64,000 nt of DNA, from the NCBI GenBank assembly GCA_965261595.1, contig CBDHDG010000006.1, positions 1,280,001 to 1,344,000 on the forward strand, in the 5' to 3' direction. Of the stretch, positions 30,487 to 40,584 are shown in pieces. The DNA is from a bacterium (GTDB lineage Bacteria; UBA8248; JACPRG01; G963555815). Positions within the stretch are counted from its first letter, which is position 1. Each line of letters begins with the position of its first letter. The notes under the pieces are model-generated. The model saw nothing but the letters and a program-made list of their open reading frames with translations, had not been told where the DNA came from and made no database searches. Position numbers and translations under genes: made by a program.

Positions 30487-30590
30487 GCGGCGGAAGCTGC
30501 AAGCTGCGCGGCGGAACATCTGTCCGAGCGTCAGGCGGTGTTCGGCCATACCGATCTGCCGGCCGCGACGCTCGCCTTCGAGTCGGAACC
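30487..30590 (+). pseudogene. Second MobF relaxase relic (central region)
   Basis: AAEAASCAAEHLSERQAVFGHTDL resembles the TrwC AVxHLSERxAVF segment. Confidence 0.5.
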
Positions 30591-30672
30591 TGCCAGGACA
30601 CATTGCGAGGAGCGGAGTTCGTGTCCGTGTCGCAGCTCAGGATATCGACCTAAACTCGGAGGGCCAAAATGT

Positions 30673-31338
30673 ATGATCTATCTCGTCGTAGCCTGCATCG
30701 GACTCCTGGCCGCTGCCTTCTCTCCCGCGACTTACGCCCAGCTCTCGGGCCCGGCCTCGGTGACCGATGGAGACACCCTCAAGGTTTCCGGCCACCGTGT
30801 CCGGCTCCACGGCATCGACGCACCGGAGAGCGCTCAGACCTGCCGGGCTGAGGGCAAGCCTTGGAGTTGCGGTACGGCTGCCGCGACCGCGCTCCGCAAG
30901 CGCCTCGCCCGACGGCCCGTCGCATGCAAGGAGCGTGATCGCGACAGCTACGGGCGCATCGTGGCGGTATGTCGAGTCGCCGGCGAGGACGTCAATGCGT
31001 GGATGGTCTCCCAAGGCTGGGCGCTCGCGTACCGCAAATACTCGCCCGACTACGTTCCACAGGAGAGGGGTGCAAAGGCCGCTCGTCGCGGGCTCTGGCG
31101 AGGGGCGTTCGTGCCCCCGTGGGATTGGCGGCGCGGGGACCGTCTTCAGGGGCCGGTTCTCACCGACACCGGCGAGTGTCGCATCAAGGGGAACATCGGC
31201 CGCACGGGCGCGCGCATCTATCATGTGCCGGGGGGCCGGTCCTATGACCGGACCCGCATCGACACGTCGAAGGGCGAGCGGTGGTTCTGCACCGAGGCGC
31301 AGGCCGAGGCCGCCGGGTGGCGGCGGTCACGAAGATGA
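30673..31338 (+). CDS. Secreted thermonuclease (SNase family) with C-terminal Cys domain
   Basis: Signal peptide; VTDGDTL, VRLHGIDAPE, DSYGRIVA; CRIKGNI..YHVPG..ERWFCTE..AAGWR. Confidence 0.9.
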   Translation: MIYLVVACIGLLAAAFSPATYAQLSGPASVTDGDTLKVSGHRVRLHGIDAPESAQTCRAEGKPWSCGTAAATALRKRLARRPVACKERDRDSYGRIVAVCRVAGEDVNAWMVSQGWALAYRKYSPDYVPQERGAKAARRGLWRGAFVPPWDWRRGDRLQGPVLTDTGECRIKGNIGRTGARIYHVPGGRSYDRTRIDTSKGERWFCTEAQAEAAGWRRSRR

Positions 31339-31659
31339 GCGTGTGCGTCCATGGCTGACCGTCCATACACCCAATGCCTTGTCGCCTTTCCACCTCCTTG
31401 CCGTCCACCTCCTTGCCGTCCGGCAAACCGTCAGGTCGGTCCTTGCACTTCCCTGGCTGGACCCTCCGTCCGCGCATGCTCCTCAACCAGCCCTTGAGGA
31501 CGCGGGTCTGCACCCCCGCGCGTAGTTTTTCGACCCGCTTTCACCACGAGCCTGCGCCTCGGAACCGGCCGGTGTTCCTCCTTCCCTGGCCCCGATATCG
31601 TGTTCGAACCGAATATGGAGCCATCTGGCCGGGCCCGTAAAGACTGGTAGGCTCGCCCC

Positions 31660-32334
31660 ATGTGCGGACGCTTCACCCAACGTTGCACATGGCCTGAGGT
31701 TCAAGCCTGTCTGGACCTGGTCGGCCCGCCCGTGAACCTCAGTCCACGCTACAACGTCGCGCCGGGCCAGGACGTCGCGGCCGTCCGTTCGGACGAGGAC
31801 GGCCGCCGGCTCTCGATGCTCCGCTGGGGTCTGATCCCCGGCTGGGCCAGGGACGCCAACATCGGCTACAAGCTGATCAACGCCCGCGCCGAGACCGTCG
31901 GCACGAAGCCGGCCTTCCGCGACGCGTACCGGAACCGCCGCTGCCTCATTCCGGCCGACGGGTTCTATGAATGGACGCGGCAGGGTGCGGCCAGGCAACC
32001 GTGGCTGATCGGACTGAAGGGGGGCGCGCTGTTCGCCTTGGCCGGGCTGTGGGAACGCTGGACAGCCCCGAAGGAGAGCGCGCTCAAGGGGCCGGGCGAG
32101 ACGATCGAAACCTGCGCCATTCTGACGACCGCCGCCAACAAGGCGGTAGCGCCGGTCCACGACCGGATGCCCGTGATCCTGCCCCCGGAGGCGTTCGAAC
32201 CGTGGTTCGCGGGCGAGACCGTCGCGCTCGGCCCCTATCCTCCGGAGGGGATGACGGTCCACCCCGTGAGCACCCTGGTCAACAAGCCCTCGAACGACGA
32301 TCCCCGCTGCGTCGAGCCCGTGACCGCACCGTAA
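31660..32334 (+). CDS. SOS response-associated peptidase (SRAP/YedK family)
   Basis: MCGRF N-terminus, INARAET, RCLIPADGFYEW, HDRMPVIL. Confidence 0.95.
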   Translation: MCGRFTQRCTWPEVQACLDLVGPPVNLSPRYNVAPGQDVAAVRSDEDGRRLSMLRWGLIPGWARDANIGYKLINARAETVGTKPAFRDAYRNRRCLIPADGFYEWTRQGAARQPWLIGLKGGALFALAGLWERWTAPKESALKGPGETIETCAILTTAANKAVAPVHDRMPVILPPEAFEPWFAGETVALGPYPPEGMTVHPVSTLVNKPSNDDPRCVEPVTAP

Positions 32335-32608
32335 GGCCGGGAACCCCCACGCTCTCCCCCTCTCGACCCGACGCCCGTTTGGTCCCCATCGTTTCCTTCC
32401 TCTCCCCGTAAGCGCTCCTCGCCGCCGAGAGCCGGAGTCGGGCCGGGTATCGGGCGAAGGCCGGACGCCCGAGGGGGTGTCCTCCCCTCGATCTCCCTAT
32501 TCCTCCGGAGTTGCCCATGACCGACACCATCACCGCCGACTACACGCTCCGTCCGAGCGAACTCGCCCACACCCTGGCCCTGCTGGTCGAGGCCCGCCAG
32601 CCGGCCAT

Positions 32609-32699
32609 CGTCTGTAATGGCGATTCCCGCGTAATGGAGAGTGGGTGTGCTCCGGCCCCGTGGACCGCGGATTAGGGGCCGAAGCAACTTCCCATTTCT
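32609..32699 (+). repeat. 91-bp perfect inverted repeat, left copy
   Basis: Reverse complement of 37527-37617. Confidence 0.95.
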
Positions 32700-33127
32700 G
32701 TACGGTGCTCCTCCGCTGTTTCATCAACGAGAGGAGCAAGGCGATGCCGTCACGCAAGACAGGAAGGAAGGCTGGATATGTCGGGGGACCGTTCGGACCG
32801 TTCATTCAGGAGTTCGTGACCTACCTCAAGGAGGCGGGGCTTGGTCAGAGTCAAATTTGGAAGCTTGGCCGTGTTGCCAAGGAGGTGCTGATTTGGCTGC
32901 AGGCTGACGGTGCGGCGATCGAATCAGTCGATGACGCCGTACTACGCCGATTTCGGGATGAGTACTGCCAGGAGATTCTGAAGCGACGCGAACATTCGAG
33001 GCCGGCTCAGATACGTGTAACGCTGCTAATGAATTCGTGATTATGCCTTTGACGCAGTAAGACACAAGATATAGGTGCGATTTTGAGACACTACATGTTG
33101 TGGTTATCCAACAGGAGGGGGTCACTT

Positions 33128-33343
33128 TTAGGGACCCGTGGAACCACATATCCTCCCATTGATGATGGCTGGTGGCCCGACGTAAGAGCCCCGAATTTCG
33201 AGTGGGATGCGTTTCTTCGGCGGTTTCTTATTCCTTATCCCCATCAAGTAGAAACCCGCATAGAAGAGAAGATCAATAACCCTAGAGGCTGCTTCGGAGA
33301 TGAACCATCCAAAAACGTCAAATCCTTCATATCTAAATTCCAT
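33128..33343 (-). CDS. Small hypothetical passenger protein
   Basis: GGAGAG RBS; start context similar to the neighbouring passenger gene. Confidence 0.4.
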   Translation of the reverse strand: MEFRYEGFDVFGWFISEAASRVIDLLFYAGFYLMGIRNKKPPKKRIPLEIRGSYVGPPAIINGRICGSTGP

Positions 33344-33412
33344 TGCCTGGGCTCTCCAAGCTGCGGGTTAATGGAACGCCACGGCTGGGGCCGTATACCC
33401 CAGCCGTGGCAC

Positions 33413-33700
33413 TTATTCACACGCGATGTCCTGTTGCGCCGATGCAATCCTCACTTCAAATTCACCGGCAAACCTGAATATCACCTTCTCAAGTTTGGGA
33501 CTATTGAGATACCTATGTTGGGGCGGGTGTTTCCTGACAAAAAATACACGCCTCCGCTTTTTGTTGAATCTTCCTCCAAGTCTCTCTACGGCCAAGTAGT
33601 CTCTGTCCTGAAGAACCTGCACCAGCAGTTTAAGTTTTCTCGGGGAGACATAGGCGGGTCGGCTAAAAGCCTTTTCCTTAAGAAAGCATTTTGCTTCCAT
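33413..33700 (-). CDS. Hypothetical passenger protein, paralog of 33794-34144
   Basis: AAGGAGG RBS; shared motifs CF..PAYV..DRD..LG..HP..YL.S..FRF.GEF..I.C. Confidence 0.7.
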   Translation of the reverse strand: MEAKCFLKEKAFSRPAYVSPRKLKLLVQVLQDRDYLAVERLGGRFNKKRRRVFFVRKHPPQHRYLNSPKLEKVIFRFAGEFEVRIASAQQDIACE

Positions 33701-33793
33701 TGCCCCAGTCCTCCTTCAAGGTTGGGTGGTGATGGAACCGCAGCGCCAGGGGCGGGATCCCCTGGCGCTGCACTTGTAAATCTTATTTTCCAC

Positions 33794-34144
33794 CTATTTG
33801 CACGAGATGAACTCGCACAACGTCTCAAAAACCTTGAATTCCCCTTCAAAACGGAAAGTCGTAGAGCCAGGGATGCTCTTCAGGTATTGGAATCCTTTTG
33901 GATGCTCACTCACCATGAAAATACGCCATTTCTCCTTTGCGTTTCGGTATCCAAGTTTATACAAAGCTACCAAATCGCGATCGTCCAACATGCGAAGTAT
34001 GAGTTTTCTTCGTTCCAAATCCACATAAGCGGGGCTGTACACCGCACCTTTTCCGATAAAACAGGCCTTGTTGGATTCTCCAGCCATGACGGCGGAAGAT
34101 GCGATGAGGGCAGTTGTAAGTATGCAACCGCCGATAGTACGCAT
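33794..34144 (-). CDS. Hypothetical secreted passenger protein
   Basis: Signal peptide MRTIGGCILTTALIASSAVMA; paralogous to 33413-33700. Confidence 0.7.
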   Translation of the reverse strand: MRTIGGCILTTALIASSAVMAGESNKACFIGKGAVYSPAYVDLERRKLILRMLDDRDLVALYKLGYRNAKEKWRIFMVSEHPKGFQYLKSIPGSTTFRFEGEFKVFETLCEFISCK

Positions 34145-35607
34145 GGGCAGACCCCCAGAAAATCGAGGTTGACACGGGCTTGGGGATTTGCTACAAGGAG
34201 GGTCTGTGAGGTCCTCTCTTGTAGCAACGCCCCGGGGTTCCCTCGGGGCTTCCACCCTTTGAAGTTCCATATACCACATGTAGTGGGTCGGATTCAATTT
34301 TCGAGGGACCACCATATCTTGTGTCTTACTGCGTCAAGGGCATAATCACGAATGAATTGCACTCGCTGGCTCGTCCGGTTCGCCGAGCACACCGGTCGTG
34401 TCCGGCATCCTGGCGAGCTCGCCGACGGTTTATGCCTCCTCGATGAGTATCTCGCTGAGTTGGGCGGCGAAGGCTATAGGCCCCGGGCGCTCAAGTCCTA
34501 TCACTACAGATGCCACCACTTTCTGACCTGGCTCCACCAGTGCCGTATTCCTTTGGCGGAGGTGAACGCCAGCACCCTGGAACGGTTTGTCGACCATGAC
34601 TGTGTCTGCCCGTGGAGGATGCGCAACATAGAAAAACGGAAGTCTCGGCATATCGGCTCCATCAAGGCGTTTCTACGGTTCCTCTTCACCAGCGGGGTGA
34701 TGCCGGACGCTTTCCCTGTCGAAGATTCCGGCGCCGCAATGTCGGGGTTCCGTTCATGGCTCCGCCGGCATCGCGGCATCGGGGACGTCACCATTCGCAA
34801 GTATGTGAAGACCCTCTCTTTGTTCTTGCCCGAGCTGGGAGATGATTCTCGGCACTACGACGCGGCTCTCATCATGGATGTCATGTTGAGCCGTTTCACG
34901 AAGATCGCGCCGGAATACGCGCGGGAGATGACGAAAGCCCTGCGCATGTATCTGCGATTCCTCGCCTCGAATGGAGCGTGTCGACCGGAACTCGTCAACG
35001 CCGTGCCATCGGTGCCGCAATGGAGACTTGCGACCCTCCCCCGCTACATCCCAACCGATGATATCGAACGGGTGATCGCGTCGTGCAACGCCAGGACAGC
35101 GGCGGGAGTTCGCGACCGGGCGGTCTTGCTGCTTCTGGCCAGGCTGGCGCTTCGCGGAGGCGACATCTGCGAGCTGCGGTTGGACGACATCGATTGGACA
35201 AAGGCCCTCGTCAAGGTCAGCGGGAAGTCCAAGAGATCGGTTCAGTTGCCGCTTCCCCAGGATGCCGGAGACGCGATCCTCGACTACATCGAGAAGGCAC
35301 GGCCTCGAATCGATGAGAGCAAGTTGTTCCTGCGGGTGCTGGCGCCGCATGTGCCATTCCGTTCTTCCAGAGTTGTTACCCACATCGTGTGTCGAGCTCT
35401 GGATCGAGCAGGAATGCACGAGGCGAGTCCGAGGGGCGCCCAACTGTTCCGGCACTCCACGGCGACCGGTCTGCTGCGGTCCGGAGCCTCGCTGGAGACT
35501 GTCGGCACGTTGCTGAGGCACCGCTTGCCGAACACCACCGCGATCTACGCCAAGGTCAATGTCCCCATGCTCCAGGAAGTGGCGCAGCCCTGGATAGGAG
35601 ACGTCCA

Positions 35608-36531
35608 ATGAACATGATCGACAACGTGGAGCGGTACATCACCTTCAAGCGCCATCTGGGGTTCAAGTTCGTCGAGGACGCTCGGACACTGCGAGCTTTT
35701 GCGCATGAGGCCGTCGCCTGCAGCGATGGCTTCATCCGAGCCGCCTCGGTGATCGCTTGGGCCCGCAAGACATCGACAGCTGGCCAAGCACGCATCCGCC
35801 TGCGAATGGTTCGTGGCTTGGCCGTGTGGCTTCACGCTGAGGACCAACGCCACGAGGTTCCCTCGCCGGTTGCCCTCGGCCGAGTGCCGGTGAGGAGATC
35901 CTCCCCTCATCTCCTGAGCGCGGTCCAGGTCAAGGAGATCATGGACGCGGCGTTGTTAATGAGAAGCACAGGTCCGCTCAACGGTTATACGTACCACTAC
36001 ATGATCGGGCTGCTTGCCTCGACGGGATTGCGTCTCTCGGAAGGGCTCGCCTTGAAGCTGACCGACATCACCCCCGATGGGCTGGTGGTCAGACAATCCA
36101 AGCTCGGAAAATCGCGGTTGGTTCCCCTTCACGAGAGTACGAGCAACGCGCTGAGCGAGTATCTTGAGATCAGGATGCGCAAGGGCGGATGCCACGAACA
36201 CCTGTTCGTTCTCTCCAACGGCAAACCCCCTCATCACAGCACTCTCTCGAAGATCTTCCTCAGACTCGCCAGGCAACTCGGCTACCGCGGTAGTCCAGGG
36301 GAGCCGGGTACGCGACTGCACGATTTGCGACATGGATTCGCCACGCGTTCGCTTGAGAACGCAGTCGCGGTCGATCGCGACAGCGTCAGCCGACACGTCC
36401 TGGCGTTATCCACCTATCTCGGTCACGTCAGCATGGCCTCGACCTACTGGTATCTGGAAGCTACGCCCGTCCTGCTCCGGGAGATCGCCCGCGCTGCTGA
36501 AAACACACATGTGGGGAGGATCTTGAGATGA
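35608..36531 (+). CDS. ritB: RitB tyrosine recombinase
   Basis: YITFKRHLGFK, TGLRLSEG, RLHDLRHGFA, LSTYLGH..TYWYL. Confidence 0.88.
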   Translation: MNMIDNVERYITFKRHLGFKFVEDARTLRAFAHEAVACSDGFIRAASVIAWARKTSTAGQARIRLRMVRGLAVWLHAEDQRHEVPSPVALGRVPVRRSSPHLLSAVQVKEIMDAALLMRSTGPLNGYTYHYMIGLLASTGLRLSEGLALKLTDITPDGLVVRQSKLGKSRLVPLHESTSNALSEYLEIRMRKGGCHEHLFVLSNGKPPHHSTLSKIFLRLARQLGYRGSPGEPGTRLHDLRHGFATRSLENAVAVDRDSVSRHVLALSTYLGHVSMASTYWYLEATPVLLREIARAAENTHVGRILR

Positions 36532-37528
36532 CCGCGCTTTCCCCCCATATCAGCAAGTTCCTGTACGAATATCTGCCGCGCGATCGTGGCGCGAGTCAGC
36601 ATACTATCGATAGTTACTCGGTGAGCTTCCTACAGCTCATTGACTTCGCCGAAAACAGGCTTCGCGTTCGGGCTTGTACGCTCACGATCGAGCAGTTGAC
36701 GGCCGAAGTCATCCTCGACTTCCTCGAACACCTGGAACGGGACCGCGGAAACACGATTGGAACACGCAATGTACGACTGGCCGCGATTAAATCCTTCTTC
36801 CGATTCCTTGAGCATCGGGCGCCGGCATGTCTTCACTTGGCAGCCCAAGTCCACGCGATTCCGCTTAAGCGCCGCAATCAACCATTGGTCGACTACCTCG
36901 ACCACAATGAAGTACAGGCCGTGCTTGAAGCACCGGATCCGTCGACGCGTGCGGGGATACGCGACCGCGCGATGCTCCACCTTGCCTATGCGGCTGGACT
37001 GCGAGTGTCGGAGTTGGTGGGCGTTACATGCCACGATCTCGAGCAACCCGGTCTCAACCTCGTCCGCATCCGCGGAAAGGGGCGCCGCGAACGCGTACTC
37101 CCACTGTGGGCGCAGACACGATCGGTGCTCCGGGACTGGCTCGCGATACGTCCTGAGGCGACCAGCCCCTACCTGTTCCTCAACGCCCGCGGGGTGGTCA
37201 TGACCCGCCACGGCTTCGCTCACCGTCTGAAGCGGCATGCGGACACTGCTCGGCGATCAGTACGTCGATTGCCACCAAGCGCATCACCCCCCACGTGCTT
37301 CGGCACAGCTGCGCCATGAATACCTACGAATCCGTCGGCGACATCCGCAAAGTCTCGACCTGGTTGGGTCATGCAAGCGTCCAAAGTACGGAGATCTATG
37401 TCCGGGCAGATACATTGGAAAAGCTCGACATACTTGCTGCACGACGGCCTCCGTCGATCCGCAAGGGGGTCTTCATCGATGCTAGGGACCGGTTGATGAG
37501 GATACTGAACGAAGACAAGCTGAAATAG
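36528..37528 (+). pseudogene. ritC: RitC tyrosine recombinase, frameshifted near 37262
   Basis: RNVRLAAIKSFF, GLRVSEL, GKGRRER; ITPHVLRHSCAM..WLGH..TEIY continues in another frame. Confidence 0.85.
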
Positions 37529-37617
37529 AAATGGGAAGTTGCTTCGGCCCCTAATCCGCGGTCCACGGGGCCGGAGCACACCCACTCTCCATTACGCGGG
37601 AATCGCCATTACAGACG
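37527..37617 (-). repeat. 91-bp perfect inverted repeat, right copy
   Basis: Reverse complement of 32609-32699; overlaps the ritC stop codon. Confidence 0.95.
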
Positions 37618-37643
37618 TAATGTTGAGCTCAACATTACGTCTG
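37612..37643. repeat. 32-bp perfect palindrome
   Basis: CAGACGTAATGTTGAG|CTCAACATTACGTCTG. Confidence 0.95.
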
Positions 37644-38590
37644 GGGGCCGCCCAGGTGCGCCAAGTCCCAAATCGCCCAACAGGTGGCCGCCGACGCAGG
37701 ACGCGAGTACATCGACGTCCGGGCCCTCCTGCTCGACCCCGTGGACCTGCGCGGCATACCCTGGCGCGACGGTTCGGACCGCACCCGCTGGGCCCCCCCG
37801 GCCTTCCTGCCGCCCTCGGATCGGGACGGCCGCTGGCTCGTCAACCTGGAGGAGCTGCCCTCGGCCGCGCCCATGGCCCAGGCGGCCCTGTACCAGCTCG
37901 TGCTCGACCGGCGCTGCGGCGAGTACGAGCTCCCCGACGGCGCCTCGCTCATCGCCTGCGGCAACCGGGAGACCGATCGGGGCGTCACCCACAGGATGCC
38001 GACTCCGCTGGCCTCCAGATTCGTTCACCTGGAGATCCGCGTGGACGTTCCGGACTGGTGCGCCTGGGGAGCGGCCCACGGCATCGCGCCCGAGGTGCTC
38101 TTCTTCATCCAGATGCGGCCCGAGCTGCTGCACCAGTTCGACCCGCAGTCGCGGGAGAAGGCCTTTCCCTGGTCGCCATATTGGGAGTTCGTCTCCAACA
38201 TCGTGCGCCAAAGGAACGGTCTCGATGCCGCCTCCGGGCGCGCCCTGTTCCGGGGGGCCGTGGGCGAGGCCGCCGCGGTGGAGTTTTCGGCCTTTCTCAA
38301 GGTCTGGCGGGAGCTGCCCCACCCCAAGGCCGTGATCGACGATCCCGAGAACGCGGCCATCCCCGACAACGCCAGCGCCCTGATCGCCCTCTGCGCCTCC
38401 CTCTACAGATTGGCCGACGACATCAACCTGGGGTCCATCGTCACCTACGCCAAGAGACTCAGGCGCGAGGTCGGCGAGTTCCTCGTGGGCTCCTGCATCC
38501 GCCGCAACCCGGACCTTCAGCACAGTCCCGCCTTCATCCAGTGGGCCGCCGCCAAAATCCGGTGACACCCCATTTCGGAGATCAAACACC

Positions 38591-38711
38591 ATGAACCTCA
38601 CCCATGATGCGATGCTCGTGAGCCTCCGGATCAACGCCTGGTCCGGCAGGCTCTACGACCGCCAGGCCAGCCGTCACGTGGCCATCCATCACGACGCCAG
38701 CGCTAGCGCCG
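38591..38711 (+). pseudogene. MoxR-associated hypothetical protein (DUF3150-like), truncated by IS
   Basis: MNLTHDAMLVSLRINAWSGRLYDRQAS ends at IS copy 4. Confidence 0.55.
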
Positions 38712-40115
38712 TGGATCGCCCCTGGGTTATTGGACACTCGGGTGAGGGTATTCGACCTCATGCGGCCTCCGCAACTTGAGCGAGTTTTTCCTGCCTTGCC
38801 TGGGCCGGCGTTCGGTAGCCGTAGCCCTCGAGAATCCAATGATGGTTGTACAGGTTCTTGAACTCAAGCAGCGCCCACCGCAGTTCCTCTACGGTGGCGA
38901 AAGAGCGCACCCACAGGAGATTCTCCTTCAAGATGCGGATGAACCACTCACAGTAGCCATTTCCCTCGGGCGCCCGCACGAAGCTGGGCGAACTGGTCAT
39001 GCCCAGGTAGGCGATCTCCCGCTGAAAGTCATCGGACAGATAGGCGGGTCCGTGGTCGTGACGAACTTTAAGCCCCTCGGCGACGTCCGCCTCCAAGCCG
39101 GCGAAGCGCTCGGCGACCCCCTGCCGGATCGGCTCCAGGGCCTCGAAGCGGTTGCCGCTCTTGGCCGCATGGATCCCCACGCAGTCCACCGAGCAGTGAT
39201 CCACCGCCACGAACACCGAGGCCATCCCCTCCTCGGTGGTCACCGTCGTCGTCATGTCCGTGCCCCACATTCGGTCGGGCCGCTCGGTGCGGATGGTCCC
39301 GTTGTGGGCCTTGGGACCTCGGGGTTTGCCCACCCGGTGGGGGGCCTGAAGCCCCGCCTCCCGCATCAGGCGACGCACCCGCTCCTTGCTGGTGCGGATG
39401 CCCGCGAAGCGCAGCCTCGCCCACACCTTGCGGTAGCCCTCGCCATGGAAGGGAGAGTCCTCCAGGACCTGCCGGATGTGGCCGAGGAGTTCCGCATCGG
39501 TGCACGGGCCCACAGGGCCGCGCTTATTGGGCGTGGGGCGTTCATGAACGGGGACCGCCTCTCGCCGCCGTTGCGCGTAGACCGTGGAGCGCGCCAAGCC
39601 TCAAAGGGCGCACACCCGCTTCAGGCCGTAGGCTCTGCCCGTGGAGGTGAAGCGGGCCTGACTCATCGCCTCCACCTCCTGCCGGCTAAAGGGCGGCCGG
39701 CCTCCAGGCGGTCGATCTTCTCCCGCAGGACCTCGCCCTCCATCGTGAGTTCGCCCACCTTGGCCTTGAGCCGGGCGTTCTCCTCGTCCCGCTCATCCGC
39801 CGGGCGGGCTTTGAGCGCCGCCTCGCCCCCGCGAAGGAACGCCTCGCGCCAGGCGGAAAGCCGAGCCGCTGTCGTGCCCAACTCGCGGCAGAGCGTCTCC
39901 AGGCTCTCGCCCCGCAAAAGACGCATGACCGCCTCCCGCTTGCGCTGGCAGGAGAACCGACTCCGCTCACTGCGATGCCCTGGGGCCTTGGCTCCGTTCG
40001 CCCTACGGGCGCCCTCCGCCAAAGCCCCCTCTTGCTTTTGTTCGTTCATCGCGACACCCCTTTCTCCATGAATCATGGATCAATCGAGTGTCCAACAAAA
40101 CCCTAGAGCGGGGGA
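38712..40115 (-). mobile_element. IS3-family element, copy 4
   Basis: Near-identical, 1404 bp; no TSD. Confidence 0.93.
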
Positions 40116-40341
40116 CCTGGGGCGAGCGCATCGACATCAAGATGGCGTGAGTGTGGGACGGTGCACCGTTTCCCGCCCTGTCCCCCGCTTGGCCGGCGCG
40201 TCCATTCACCGGCCGGTTTCCCGAACACGCCGATCCCCGCCGCGAGACCGAGGCCGGGCGGCGGCCGGGCGAAGCGCGGGCGCTGAGGCGAGGCAGGCGC
40301 CATGCCCCGGCCCCGCGCGCCGTCCCAACGGAGGAACCGCC

Positions 40342-40584
40342 ATGACCGATACCAACATCACGGAGGAGCACCGACGGGCCTTCTCGGCCCTGACCAGTGG
40401 CGACTGCCGGAACTTCGCGCTTTTTTCCTGCTTCTGTGACGGCCGGCCCACGGCGGCCATCGCCGCGGTGACCGTCCACCCGCCTGCCCACGAAGACGGC
40501 GAGGCGGAATACCGCGTCAGCCCGCTGTTCATCAGCCTCACGCCGGACATGATATTAACCGACCATGACGGGCGCGAGGCATGA
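40342..40584 (+). CDS. Small hypothetical protein typical of mobile elements
   Basis: GGAGG RBS; NFALFSCFCDGRPTAAI..YRVSPLF; coupled to the next gene. Confidence 0.7.
   Translation: MTDTNITEEHRRAFSALTSGDCRNFALFSCFCDGRPTAAIAAVTVHPPAHEDGEAEYRVSPLFISLTPDMILTDHDGREA

Follow-up and report, generated by a model that had tools for sequence, protein, structure and literature searches.

Recombinase in trio (RIT) elements are described, in the available part of PMC10214605 (2023), as widespread and as never having been made to transpose in the laboratory. The RITs treated by Van Houdt et al. (2012; PMC3414803) include those of Cupriavidus metallidurans CH34 and of Dinoroseobacter shibae DFL 12, the latter with two identical copies, and the overlaps between neighbouring genes are put there at 4-8 bp. 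Repeat lengths of 34 bp (PMC10214605) and "28-9 bp" (PMC3414803) have been given, and mention is made there of an "overlapping palindromic sequence"; as far as the accessible portions of this literature go, RIT ends are described only vaguely. The present analysis concerns a RIT element at positions 32609-37643 of a 64,000-nucleotide stretch of bacterial DNA (assembly GCA_965261595.1, contig CBDHDG010000006.1, positions 1,280,001 to 1,344,000; the whole stretch is referred to as the window). It is quite probably an ordinary RIT with the ends that are normal for its family, bearing three core sites, capable of integrating in either orientation and keeping its two repeat arms alike by concerted change.

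With published RITs the element shares three tandem tyrosine recombinase genes, 4-bp overlaps, a length of about 3.7 kb and the occurrence of several near-identical copies per genome, and it differs from them in nothing essential, the window copy being broken in ritA and ritC. The published descriptions, in the parts accessible, speak of much shorter repeats and contain neither a one-sided palindrome of the 6-10-10-6 type described below, nor its independence from gene orientation, nor concerted arms. Beyond the three papers cited here, no description of a one-sided 32-bp palindrome or of a RIT mechanism was found in the literature searched, to which Ricker et al. 2013 (Plasmid) and supplementary files may add.

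Several tyrosine recombinases and site-specific insertion are likewise reported, in the text available, for Tn554, the strand-biased circularizing elements (SEs) and the GInts (Idola et al. 2023, PMC10214605), all of which carry 6 bp from the previous site to the new one, as is suggested for RITs by the permuted 5-mers discussed below. According to the same text, these elements are without long terminal inverted repeats or an end palindrome, whereas the window element has 91-nt repeats, and their extra proteins TnpC, Srap, Tfp and GinD are non-recombinases, whereas all three proteins are tyrosine recombinases here. Membership of the Tn554/SE/GInt group was ruled out by the three recombinase genes and the 91-nt inverted repeats.

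A further likeness is offered by Xer/dif, Cre/loxP and FLP/FRT, in which two inverted arms of about 10 bp surround a 6-bp centre, and by the FLP-invertible repeats of the 2-micron plasmid, in which the crossover sites lie within long inverted repeats; recombination in that plasmid flips the segment between the repeats, and the repeats stay identical. The present element differs from Xer, Cre and FLP in that it encodes three recombinases, has some eight arm-like sites and joins two full sites back to back via the palindrome, and from the Xer and FLP systems in that its function is transposition, not dimer resolution or copy-number control. Tn916 and CTnDOT tolerate heterologous overlaps, those of target and element segregating to either junction, but these large conjugative elements lack long inverted repeats and encode only one integrase together with Xis. 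Coupling-sequence behaviour of this kind is familiar from both Tn554 and Tn916.

Anatomy of the element ends

The element interrupts a gene for a phage-type ATPase, and the parts of its two ends, together with the two halves of the target, are as follows.

32518-32614, plus strand: 5' part of the target gene, from the ATG to ...PAIV, including the left core; phage-type ATPase, read from the open reading frame (ORF)
32609-32614, plus strand: left core CGTCTG at the target/element junction, repeated directly at 37638-37643 and in inverted form at 37612-37617
32615-32699, plus strand: left long inverted repeat, 85 nt past the core, 100% match to the right arm
37527-37611, minus strand: right long inverted repeat, exact mirror of 32615-32699, beginning at the ritC stop codon
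37612-37617, minus strand: middle core CAGACG, the inverted copy of the core
37618-37637, no strand: two short 10-bp arms, TAATGTTGAG and CTCAACATTA, forming the palindrome centre and predicted to be element-borne
37638-37643, plus strand: outer core CGTCTG, at the V-W codons with which the target gene continues
37638-38565, plus strand: 3' part of the target gene, WGPPGCAKS..., with Walker A directly past the insertion point

At the left junction, the target sequence ...GCCAT is followed by CGTCTG and then by the long arm, which opens with TAATGGCGAT; on the right side, the end of the long arm, ATCGCCATTA, is followed in turn by CAGACG, TAATGTTGAG, CTCAACATTA, CGTCTG and the target sequence GGGGCCGCC. 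The core hexamer occurs at the element twice in direct and once in inverted orientation, and the two junctions share a 6-nt duplication. A repeat search returned the arms 32609-32699 and 37527-37617 as 91 nt of 100% complementarity, as well as a perfect 32-bp palindrome at 37612-37643 (17-nt arms at 100%), which overlaps the end of the 91-nt repeat and is laid out as a 6-bp core, a 10-bp arm, a second 10-bp arm and a 6-bp core. The initial annotation of this DNA had described 91-bp perfect inverted ends, with the core and 85 bp recurring inverted after ritC, a 32-bp palindrome with a second CGTCTG resuming the target at PAIV|WGPP, and the order core/long repeat ... inverted repeat/core'/short arm, then short arm/core/target; all of this was confirmed, the resumption of the target from both sequence and frame, and the anatomy also supports its reading of a 6-bp crossover core flanked by TAATG-type 10-bp arms.

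Read across the element, the target frame, with its ORF start at 32518, runs ...ARQPAIV | WGPPGCAKS. An intact paralog on contig C2 (L008:1930-3150) is matched by PHROG 1297 "ATPase" (E 1.2e-88) and weakly by Pfam AAA and bpMoxR, and the 3' target part is 80.7% identical in nucleotides to this uninterrupted copy; C2:50202 was the sole clear paralog in a genome-wide search for unoccupied paralogs with the same core, most matches of the 5-mismatch scan, which was too loose, being noise. From the continuity of the target frame and from the C2 paralog, which is without the short arms, we infer that the pair is borne by the element in the window. A target-derived palindrome was ruled out, since the ATPase frame, the C2 paralog and the sphingomonad empty site described below are all without it.

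Only 14 perfect palindromes with a half-length of at least 12 exist in the 6.17-Mb genome, and the 32-mer, with up to four substitutions allowed, occurs twice, on C6 (the window) and on C5, both times beside a RIT repeat, so that a chance origin is excluded. No isolated copy of the palindrome that might be an empty docking site was found in this genome, even when up to four of the 32 positions were allowed to differ. Inside the left long repeat, 10-bp sites lie at 32615-32624 (TAATGGCGAT) and 32632-32641 (TAATGGAGAG), and a degenerate inverted site was noticed by eye near its inner end. Exact matches to TAATGNNGAG number four in the 64-kb window, all within the element ends; with one mismatch, no enrichment was found across the window (25 found versus 22.7 expected). 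The segment ATCGCCATTA-CAGACG-TAATGTTGAG at 37602-37627 shows the dif- or lox-type layout of inverted arms of about 10 bp around a 6-bp centre, is predicted to be a complete recombination site and is the exact mirror of the junction predicted from excision. A sigma-70 promoter and terminator scan of the left end gave no match, nor did an Rfam search of 31000-40500.

Recombinase genes and the sister copy

Between the long repeats, the window copy carries the following genes and one insert.

32745-33035, plus strand: 5' part of ritA, codons 1-97, cut by the insert; Pfam Phage_integrase, E 7.7e-24
33036-34350, no strand: IS-like insert in ritA, 1315 bp, with the 8-bp target duplication AATGAATT at 33028-33035 and 34351-34358
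34351-35611, plus strand: 3' part of ritA, with the catalytic domain
35608-36531, plus strand: ritB, 307 aa, with an ATGA overlap with ritA and with ritC; Pfam Phage_integrase, E 1.5e-20
36528-37528, plus strand: ritC pseudogene, one C missing after 37262

The window copy is a RIT element, as follows from its three tandem tyrosine recombinase genes with ATGA overlaps, whose products are 39% (RitA, over 487 aa), 49% (RitB) and 55% (RitC, over 327 aa) identical to the trio of D. shibae DFL 12 pDSHI03, the RitC comparison being made with the intact protein of a sister copy on contig C5. Homology to published RITs thus extends to all three proteins, and the genes stand adjacent on the same strand in the order ritA (the long one), ritB, ritC, overlapping at both boundaries. 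Pfam Phage_integrase was found in all three proteins (RitC at E 5.5e-34); NCBIfam has no RIT-specific model, and its XerC and XerD models matched under their cut-offs. Intact RitC from C5 aligns with XerD (1a0p) through the catalytic residues (E 1.2e-25). In the C5 translations, the predicted catalytic motifs are HDLRH...LGH...Y for RitB and HVLRH...LGH...IY for RitC, while that of RitA, read by eye, is QLFRH...LRH...IY, with Gln in place of the first His. RitB searches were run with a 310-aa translation that includes three extra upstream codons.

The view of the initial annotation that ritABC is in need of repair holds: ritA is split by the insert, its C5 counterpart being uninterrupted, and ritC is one C short, which puts its HxLRH...Y part out of frame relative to C5. 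Eight public sequencing runs are listed for comparison, six of them with half or more of the sampled words and all as contigs; in all four contig sets compared (X3, X4, X7, X8), a C is inserted behind 37262 and a joint that skips the ritA insert is seen. The window copy is accordingly an element of 3707 bp with a later insertion of 1323 bp (the 1315-bp insert and the 8-bp duplication); it is crippled, and any movement would depend on proteins supplied by the intact copy on C5.

That sister element (C5:1041875-1045561) encodes RitA, RitB and RitC of 514, 307 and 333 aa and is 99.27% identical to the window copy (26 mismatches and one gap in 3687, insert excluded). Its flanks are a paralogous ATPase locus only 88-94% identical to those in the window, which indicates that the C5 copy was inserted separately and not inherited; a sign of mobility, namely near-identical copies at different sites, is thus present on C6 and C5. 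The ends match those in the window: CGTCTG and an arm stand on the 5' side of the target, and on the Walker A side the 32-bp palindrome is the same to the letter. The interior is inverted relative to the window, so that ritC adjoins the 5' target half. The 91-nt arm occurs five times in the genome, twice each on C6 (window) and C5 and once on C4. The C4 piece represents no independent event, being a segmental duplicate (100% identical) of the left junction on C5 that an insertion sequence (IS) has truncated.

The same end structure in other RIT copies

Relatives of RitB were sought in 61 genomes (its own and 60 relatives), where they were found in its own and in two others, G033 and G036, and in plasmids, where 318 records contain them; a pattern-based RitB search of genome contigs gave 46 matches, none confirmed as a relative. 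Fifteen copies with an identifiable repeat pair, from nine families, were compared: two from this genome, seven from G033 (three families), one from G036 and five from plasmid records, namely D. shibae pDSHI03 and pDSHI01, Paraburkholderia fungorum, Rhizorhabdus wittichii pDC04 and Paracoccus aminophilus pAMI8. Outside these fifteen stand three loci with no usable repeat pair, L030 (second family of this genome, on C7), L031 and L037 (R. johnstonii, a truncated trio).

Long repeats, with arms of 85-174 nt that are 95-100% identical, are present in 15 of the 15 copies, and so is the 6-10-10-6 palindrome, on exactly one side each time. At the palindrome, 12-16 of 16 positions are matched, compared with 7-11 of 16 for the best arrangement on the opposite side. 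It lies on the ritC side in nine copies and on the ritA side in six. Judged from these sequences, long repeats and a one-sided palindrome are the normal RIT end structure and not exceptional.

Three of the plasmid elements, on D. shibae pDSHI03 and pDSHI01 (L032 and L033) and on P. aminophilus pAMI8 (L036), are 6.3-kb RITs with a DEAD/DEAH helicase as cargo within the repeats. Their arms, at 148-174 nt, include the ritA start codon, and the mirror copy of this codon precedes the annotated start of the helicase gene by 120 nt, in the same frame; ritA and the helicase gene may use the same repeat-borne start signals.

The genome also holds a second, decayed RIT family, one end of which is a second perfect 32-bp palindrome outside the window at C5:1048656-1048687 (L006 10657-10688). 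It has the same 6-10-10-6 layout, reading TGGTGC CTATCTTGCG CGCAAGATAG GCACCA, and is followed by two direct CTATnTnGCG sites and then by the start of a RitA-like ORF. Copies of this family are found at C7:55738-56440 and C7:1325386-1326088, and its RitB is 40% identical to that of the window.

Arrival of the palindrome, coupling sequences and concerted arms

An empty site is provided by a plasmid of Novosphingobium capsulatum, in which the uninterrupted target matches the flanks of the R. wittichii copy at 100% on one side and 99.9% on the other. This sphingomonad empty site reads ...gataatcgatGACATATTCacgaggg and is without the palindrome, and in the occupied site the 8 nt ACATATTC stand at each junction, with the palindrome at just one of them; from this comparison of empty and occupied site it follows that the 20-bp arm pair comes with the element and that the exchange would fall within those 8 nt.

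Four copies of the sphingomonad element, at least 99.9% identical to one another, are found at one shared and two paralogous targets, and the 5-mers GACAT, CAGGA, CACAT and AACAT are permuted among their left, middle and outer cores. Such permutation is the pattern expected of a heterologous overlap that would segregate to either junction and be carried to the next site. The core assignments for D. shibae and G033 rest on paralogous targets without an empty site and are suggestive only.

Where copies in paralogous or identical targets can be counted, the palindrome never changes sides relative to the target: it keeps to one side in two of two copies of the window family, three of three of the first G033 family, two of two in D. 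shibae and four of four of the sphingomonad element. Gene orientation in those 11 copies is mixed, the palindrome abutting ritC in six and ritA in five. A fixed palindrome side combined with free orientation is what a circle whose junction mirrors the internal site would predict, and inversion in place between the left and internal sites would lead to an indistinguishable pattern.

Within elements, the two arms are 95.3-100% identical, whereas arms of different families never exceed 68% identity; the median of 36 such comparisons is 49%, and a shuffled control gives about 48%. Between the D. shibae and P. aminophilus elements, identity is 74% for the interior and 68% for the arms, while their own arm pairs are 98.6% and 98.9% alike. 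Being near-identical within elements and diverged between them, the two arms must often exchange information, whether by recombination, branch migration or copying, and these concerted sequences lend indirect support to a physical interaction of the two ends.

Proposed mechanism and rival explanations

The element would have integrated site-specifically at CGTCTG, just before the Walker A codons of the phage-type ATPase gene. Each long repeat is predicted to end in a 10-bp recombinase-binding arm beside the 6-bp crossover core, and the extra pair of 10-bp arms, the palindrome centre, would be carried at one end. Three sites may then be distinguished: the left junction is site A (target/core/repeat arm), the right junction is site C (short arm/core/target), and site B (repeat arm/core'/short arm) is internal and complete. 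Recombination of A with C would excise a circle and restore the ATPase gene, leaving in the circle a junction (short arm/core/repeat arm) that mirrors site B, so that the circle would present two equivalent, opposed full sites within a perfect palindrome of about 200 bp. Integration via either site would give the same ends relative to the target, with ritABC either way round; recombination of A with B, inverting the interior in place, would also be possible. The core would act as a coupling sequence: the two partners need not have the same one, and the element would take it along to its next site. Repeated pairing or exchange between the arms would keep them nearly identical. A RIT intermediate of this description, in which a mirror-palindrome junction of about 200 bp would account for random ritABC orientation, a target-fixed palindrome side, cores that record earlier targets and arm pairing, is put forward tentatively, as somewhat less than an even prospect.

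Several observations weigh against the reading of an ordinary RIT that integrates in either orientation by this route. No circle, excision product or inversion was seen in the public-run contigs, which break at repeats, and no strand-changing joint is listed in the four contig sets, whose pieces end at 32622/32670 and 37556. Orientation at a given locus is constant, RitB lying on the same strand and at the same coordinates in three records for each D. shibae plasmid, and R. wittichii pDC04 and S. amiense pSAMIE_2 agree in both site and orientation. The three cores of the window family are identical and hence uninformative on which core the element carries, the only empty paralog in the genome (C2) reads GGAATG at the core position, and the sample of relatives is small and was not randomly drawn. 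Moreover, instability would be expected in bacteria for a perfect palindrome of this length (about 200 bp) carried on a double-stranded circle, and a different intermediate could be favoured for that reason. Opposite orientations were seen solely between different target copies, and the constancy at single loci mildly favours a choice of orientation at integration over inversion in place. A joint from 32604 to 37668 in X3 (depth 2, with 34 other letters between) was rejected as a precise excision; it probably derives from a further ATPase paralog or a related strain in the sample.

The initial annotation had taken the right end for a special recombination product, a captured circle junction peculiar to the window copy; the internal site does mirror the predicted circle junction exactly, and the literature, in its accessible parts, gives only short RIT repeats. 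Yet an identical end stands at the independent C5 insertion, the layout recurs in every one of the compared copies across nine families, and the palindrome, as the empty site shows, is brought in by the element, so that a one-off product is very improbable. A comparison with other RIT ends had been named in the annotation itself as grounds for abandoning the idea should the structure be the norm, and it is the norm; the accompanying remark that RIT inverted repeats are usually much shorter reflects a thin literature, the sequences having arms of 85 nt and upwards to 174. The supposed captured junction is, on the sequence evidence, the element's built-in second pair of predicted binding arms. 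That a misassembly made the palindrome or the perfect repeat is less credible still, to the point of being negligible, and no evidence in its favour was found: the public-run contigs break at repeats, so the pieces listed offer no independent bridging of the palindrome, but the same 32-mer and arms stand at two loci with different flanks in this assembly, and 13 further copies come from other assemblies, including complete plasmids.

In contrast to a choice made at integration, the two orientations could arise mainly by inversion in place, the left junction recombining with the internal site and flipping the interior of 3.7-5 kb. The core at 37612 repeats that at 32609 exactly, in inverted orientation and with 85 nt of perfect homology alongside, concerted arms need repeated arm-to-arm exchange or pairing, and pSAMIE_2 and pDC04 have different middle and outer 5-mers at the same site, which implies that something acted after or between insertions. 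However, orientation never differed at one locus (three and three records for D. shibae, one sphingomonad pair), left and middle cores differ, by eye, at one or two of six positions in several copies, the window copy is without working RitA and RitC, and the contigs, which show strand-switch joints unreliably, contain none; in-place inversion as the main source is thus considered unlikely. The invertible interior proposed in the annotation stands in so far as the C5 copy is inverted between identical ends, and falls short in that both orientations at one and the same locus, the mark of a switch of the Fim, Hin or shufflon type, were not seen among records of shared loci, all of which agree.

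A mobile form that is single-stranded or a fold-back hairpin, with the long repeats as stem, the 20-bp palindrome as tip and one arm copied in each round, would also account for arms that are 95-100% identical within elements and no more than 68% between families. It was in this direction that Nielsen et al. 2017 (PMC5737581), in the text available, interpreted the raised, exonuclease-protected coverage of ritABC in a mobilome, proposing hairpin intermediates and noting that circular intermediates were not determinable by paired-end read mapping. The permuted 5-mers nevertheless fit a duplex exchange with a heteroduplex overlap, and imperfect arms (95.3% in P. fungorum, 96.5% in G036) argue against obligatory copying. 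Tyrosine recombinases with dif-like 10-6-10 sites, furthermore, normally act on duplex DNA, integron attC sites being the known exception, and the hairpin is held to be distinctly improbable. The preferred reading remains that of an ordinary RIT with three core sites and two possible orientations of integration.

Neighbouring features

The insert in ritA has a GC content of about 49% in a genome of 60-70% GC, terminal inverted repeats of about 37 nt and one frame of 420 codons that is open over almost its full length. Three full, identical copies and six with an internal deletion are present genome-wide. No match was found in Pfam, NCBIfam, PHROGs, Rfam or the ESM Atlas, and no recognisable transposase; the insert is a mobile element of unrecognised type. 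Directly after the target ATPase region, at 38711-40115 of the window, lies an IS, about 1.4 kb long, whose integrase is of the rve type (Pfam HTH_21, rve, rve_3). About 180 near-full-length copies of this IS with at least 98.8% identity are spread over all seven contigs (179 matches spanned 90% or more of a 1290-nt query), a recent expansion on a massive scale.

The target gene belongs to a block, comprising a SRAP peptidase gene, the PHROG-1297 ATPase gene downstream of it and their surroundings, that exists in four diverged copies of 77-94% identity, at 30584-32486 and 37527-38711 of the window and as paralogs on C5, C4 and C2. A RIT or a piece of one is found in three of the four ATPase genes, and the block as a whole may belong to a prophage-like or integrative element. 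Insertion in or just before Walker A (P-loop) codons is seen for two unrelated RIT families, at GVQGY|AGTGK in G033 (L022-L024) and at PAIV|WGPPGCAKS in the window (37638-37670), which could reflect coincidence or a preference for the DNA of a conserved motif.

Significance

The window element represents no new kind of system, being an ordinary RIT broken in two genes, and it corrects the impression that long perfect repeats or a palindrome are exceptional in RITs. Together with its flipped sister and their relatives, it supports a concrete and testable site model of 10-bp arms, 6-bp cores and a defined junction, which would explain how random orientation goes along with a fixed palindrome side. 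If the model is true, an intact copy, a crippled and flipped copy and an empty paralog would make this genome a natural system for dissecting RIT transposition.

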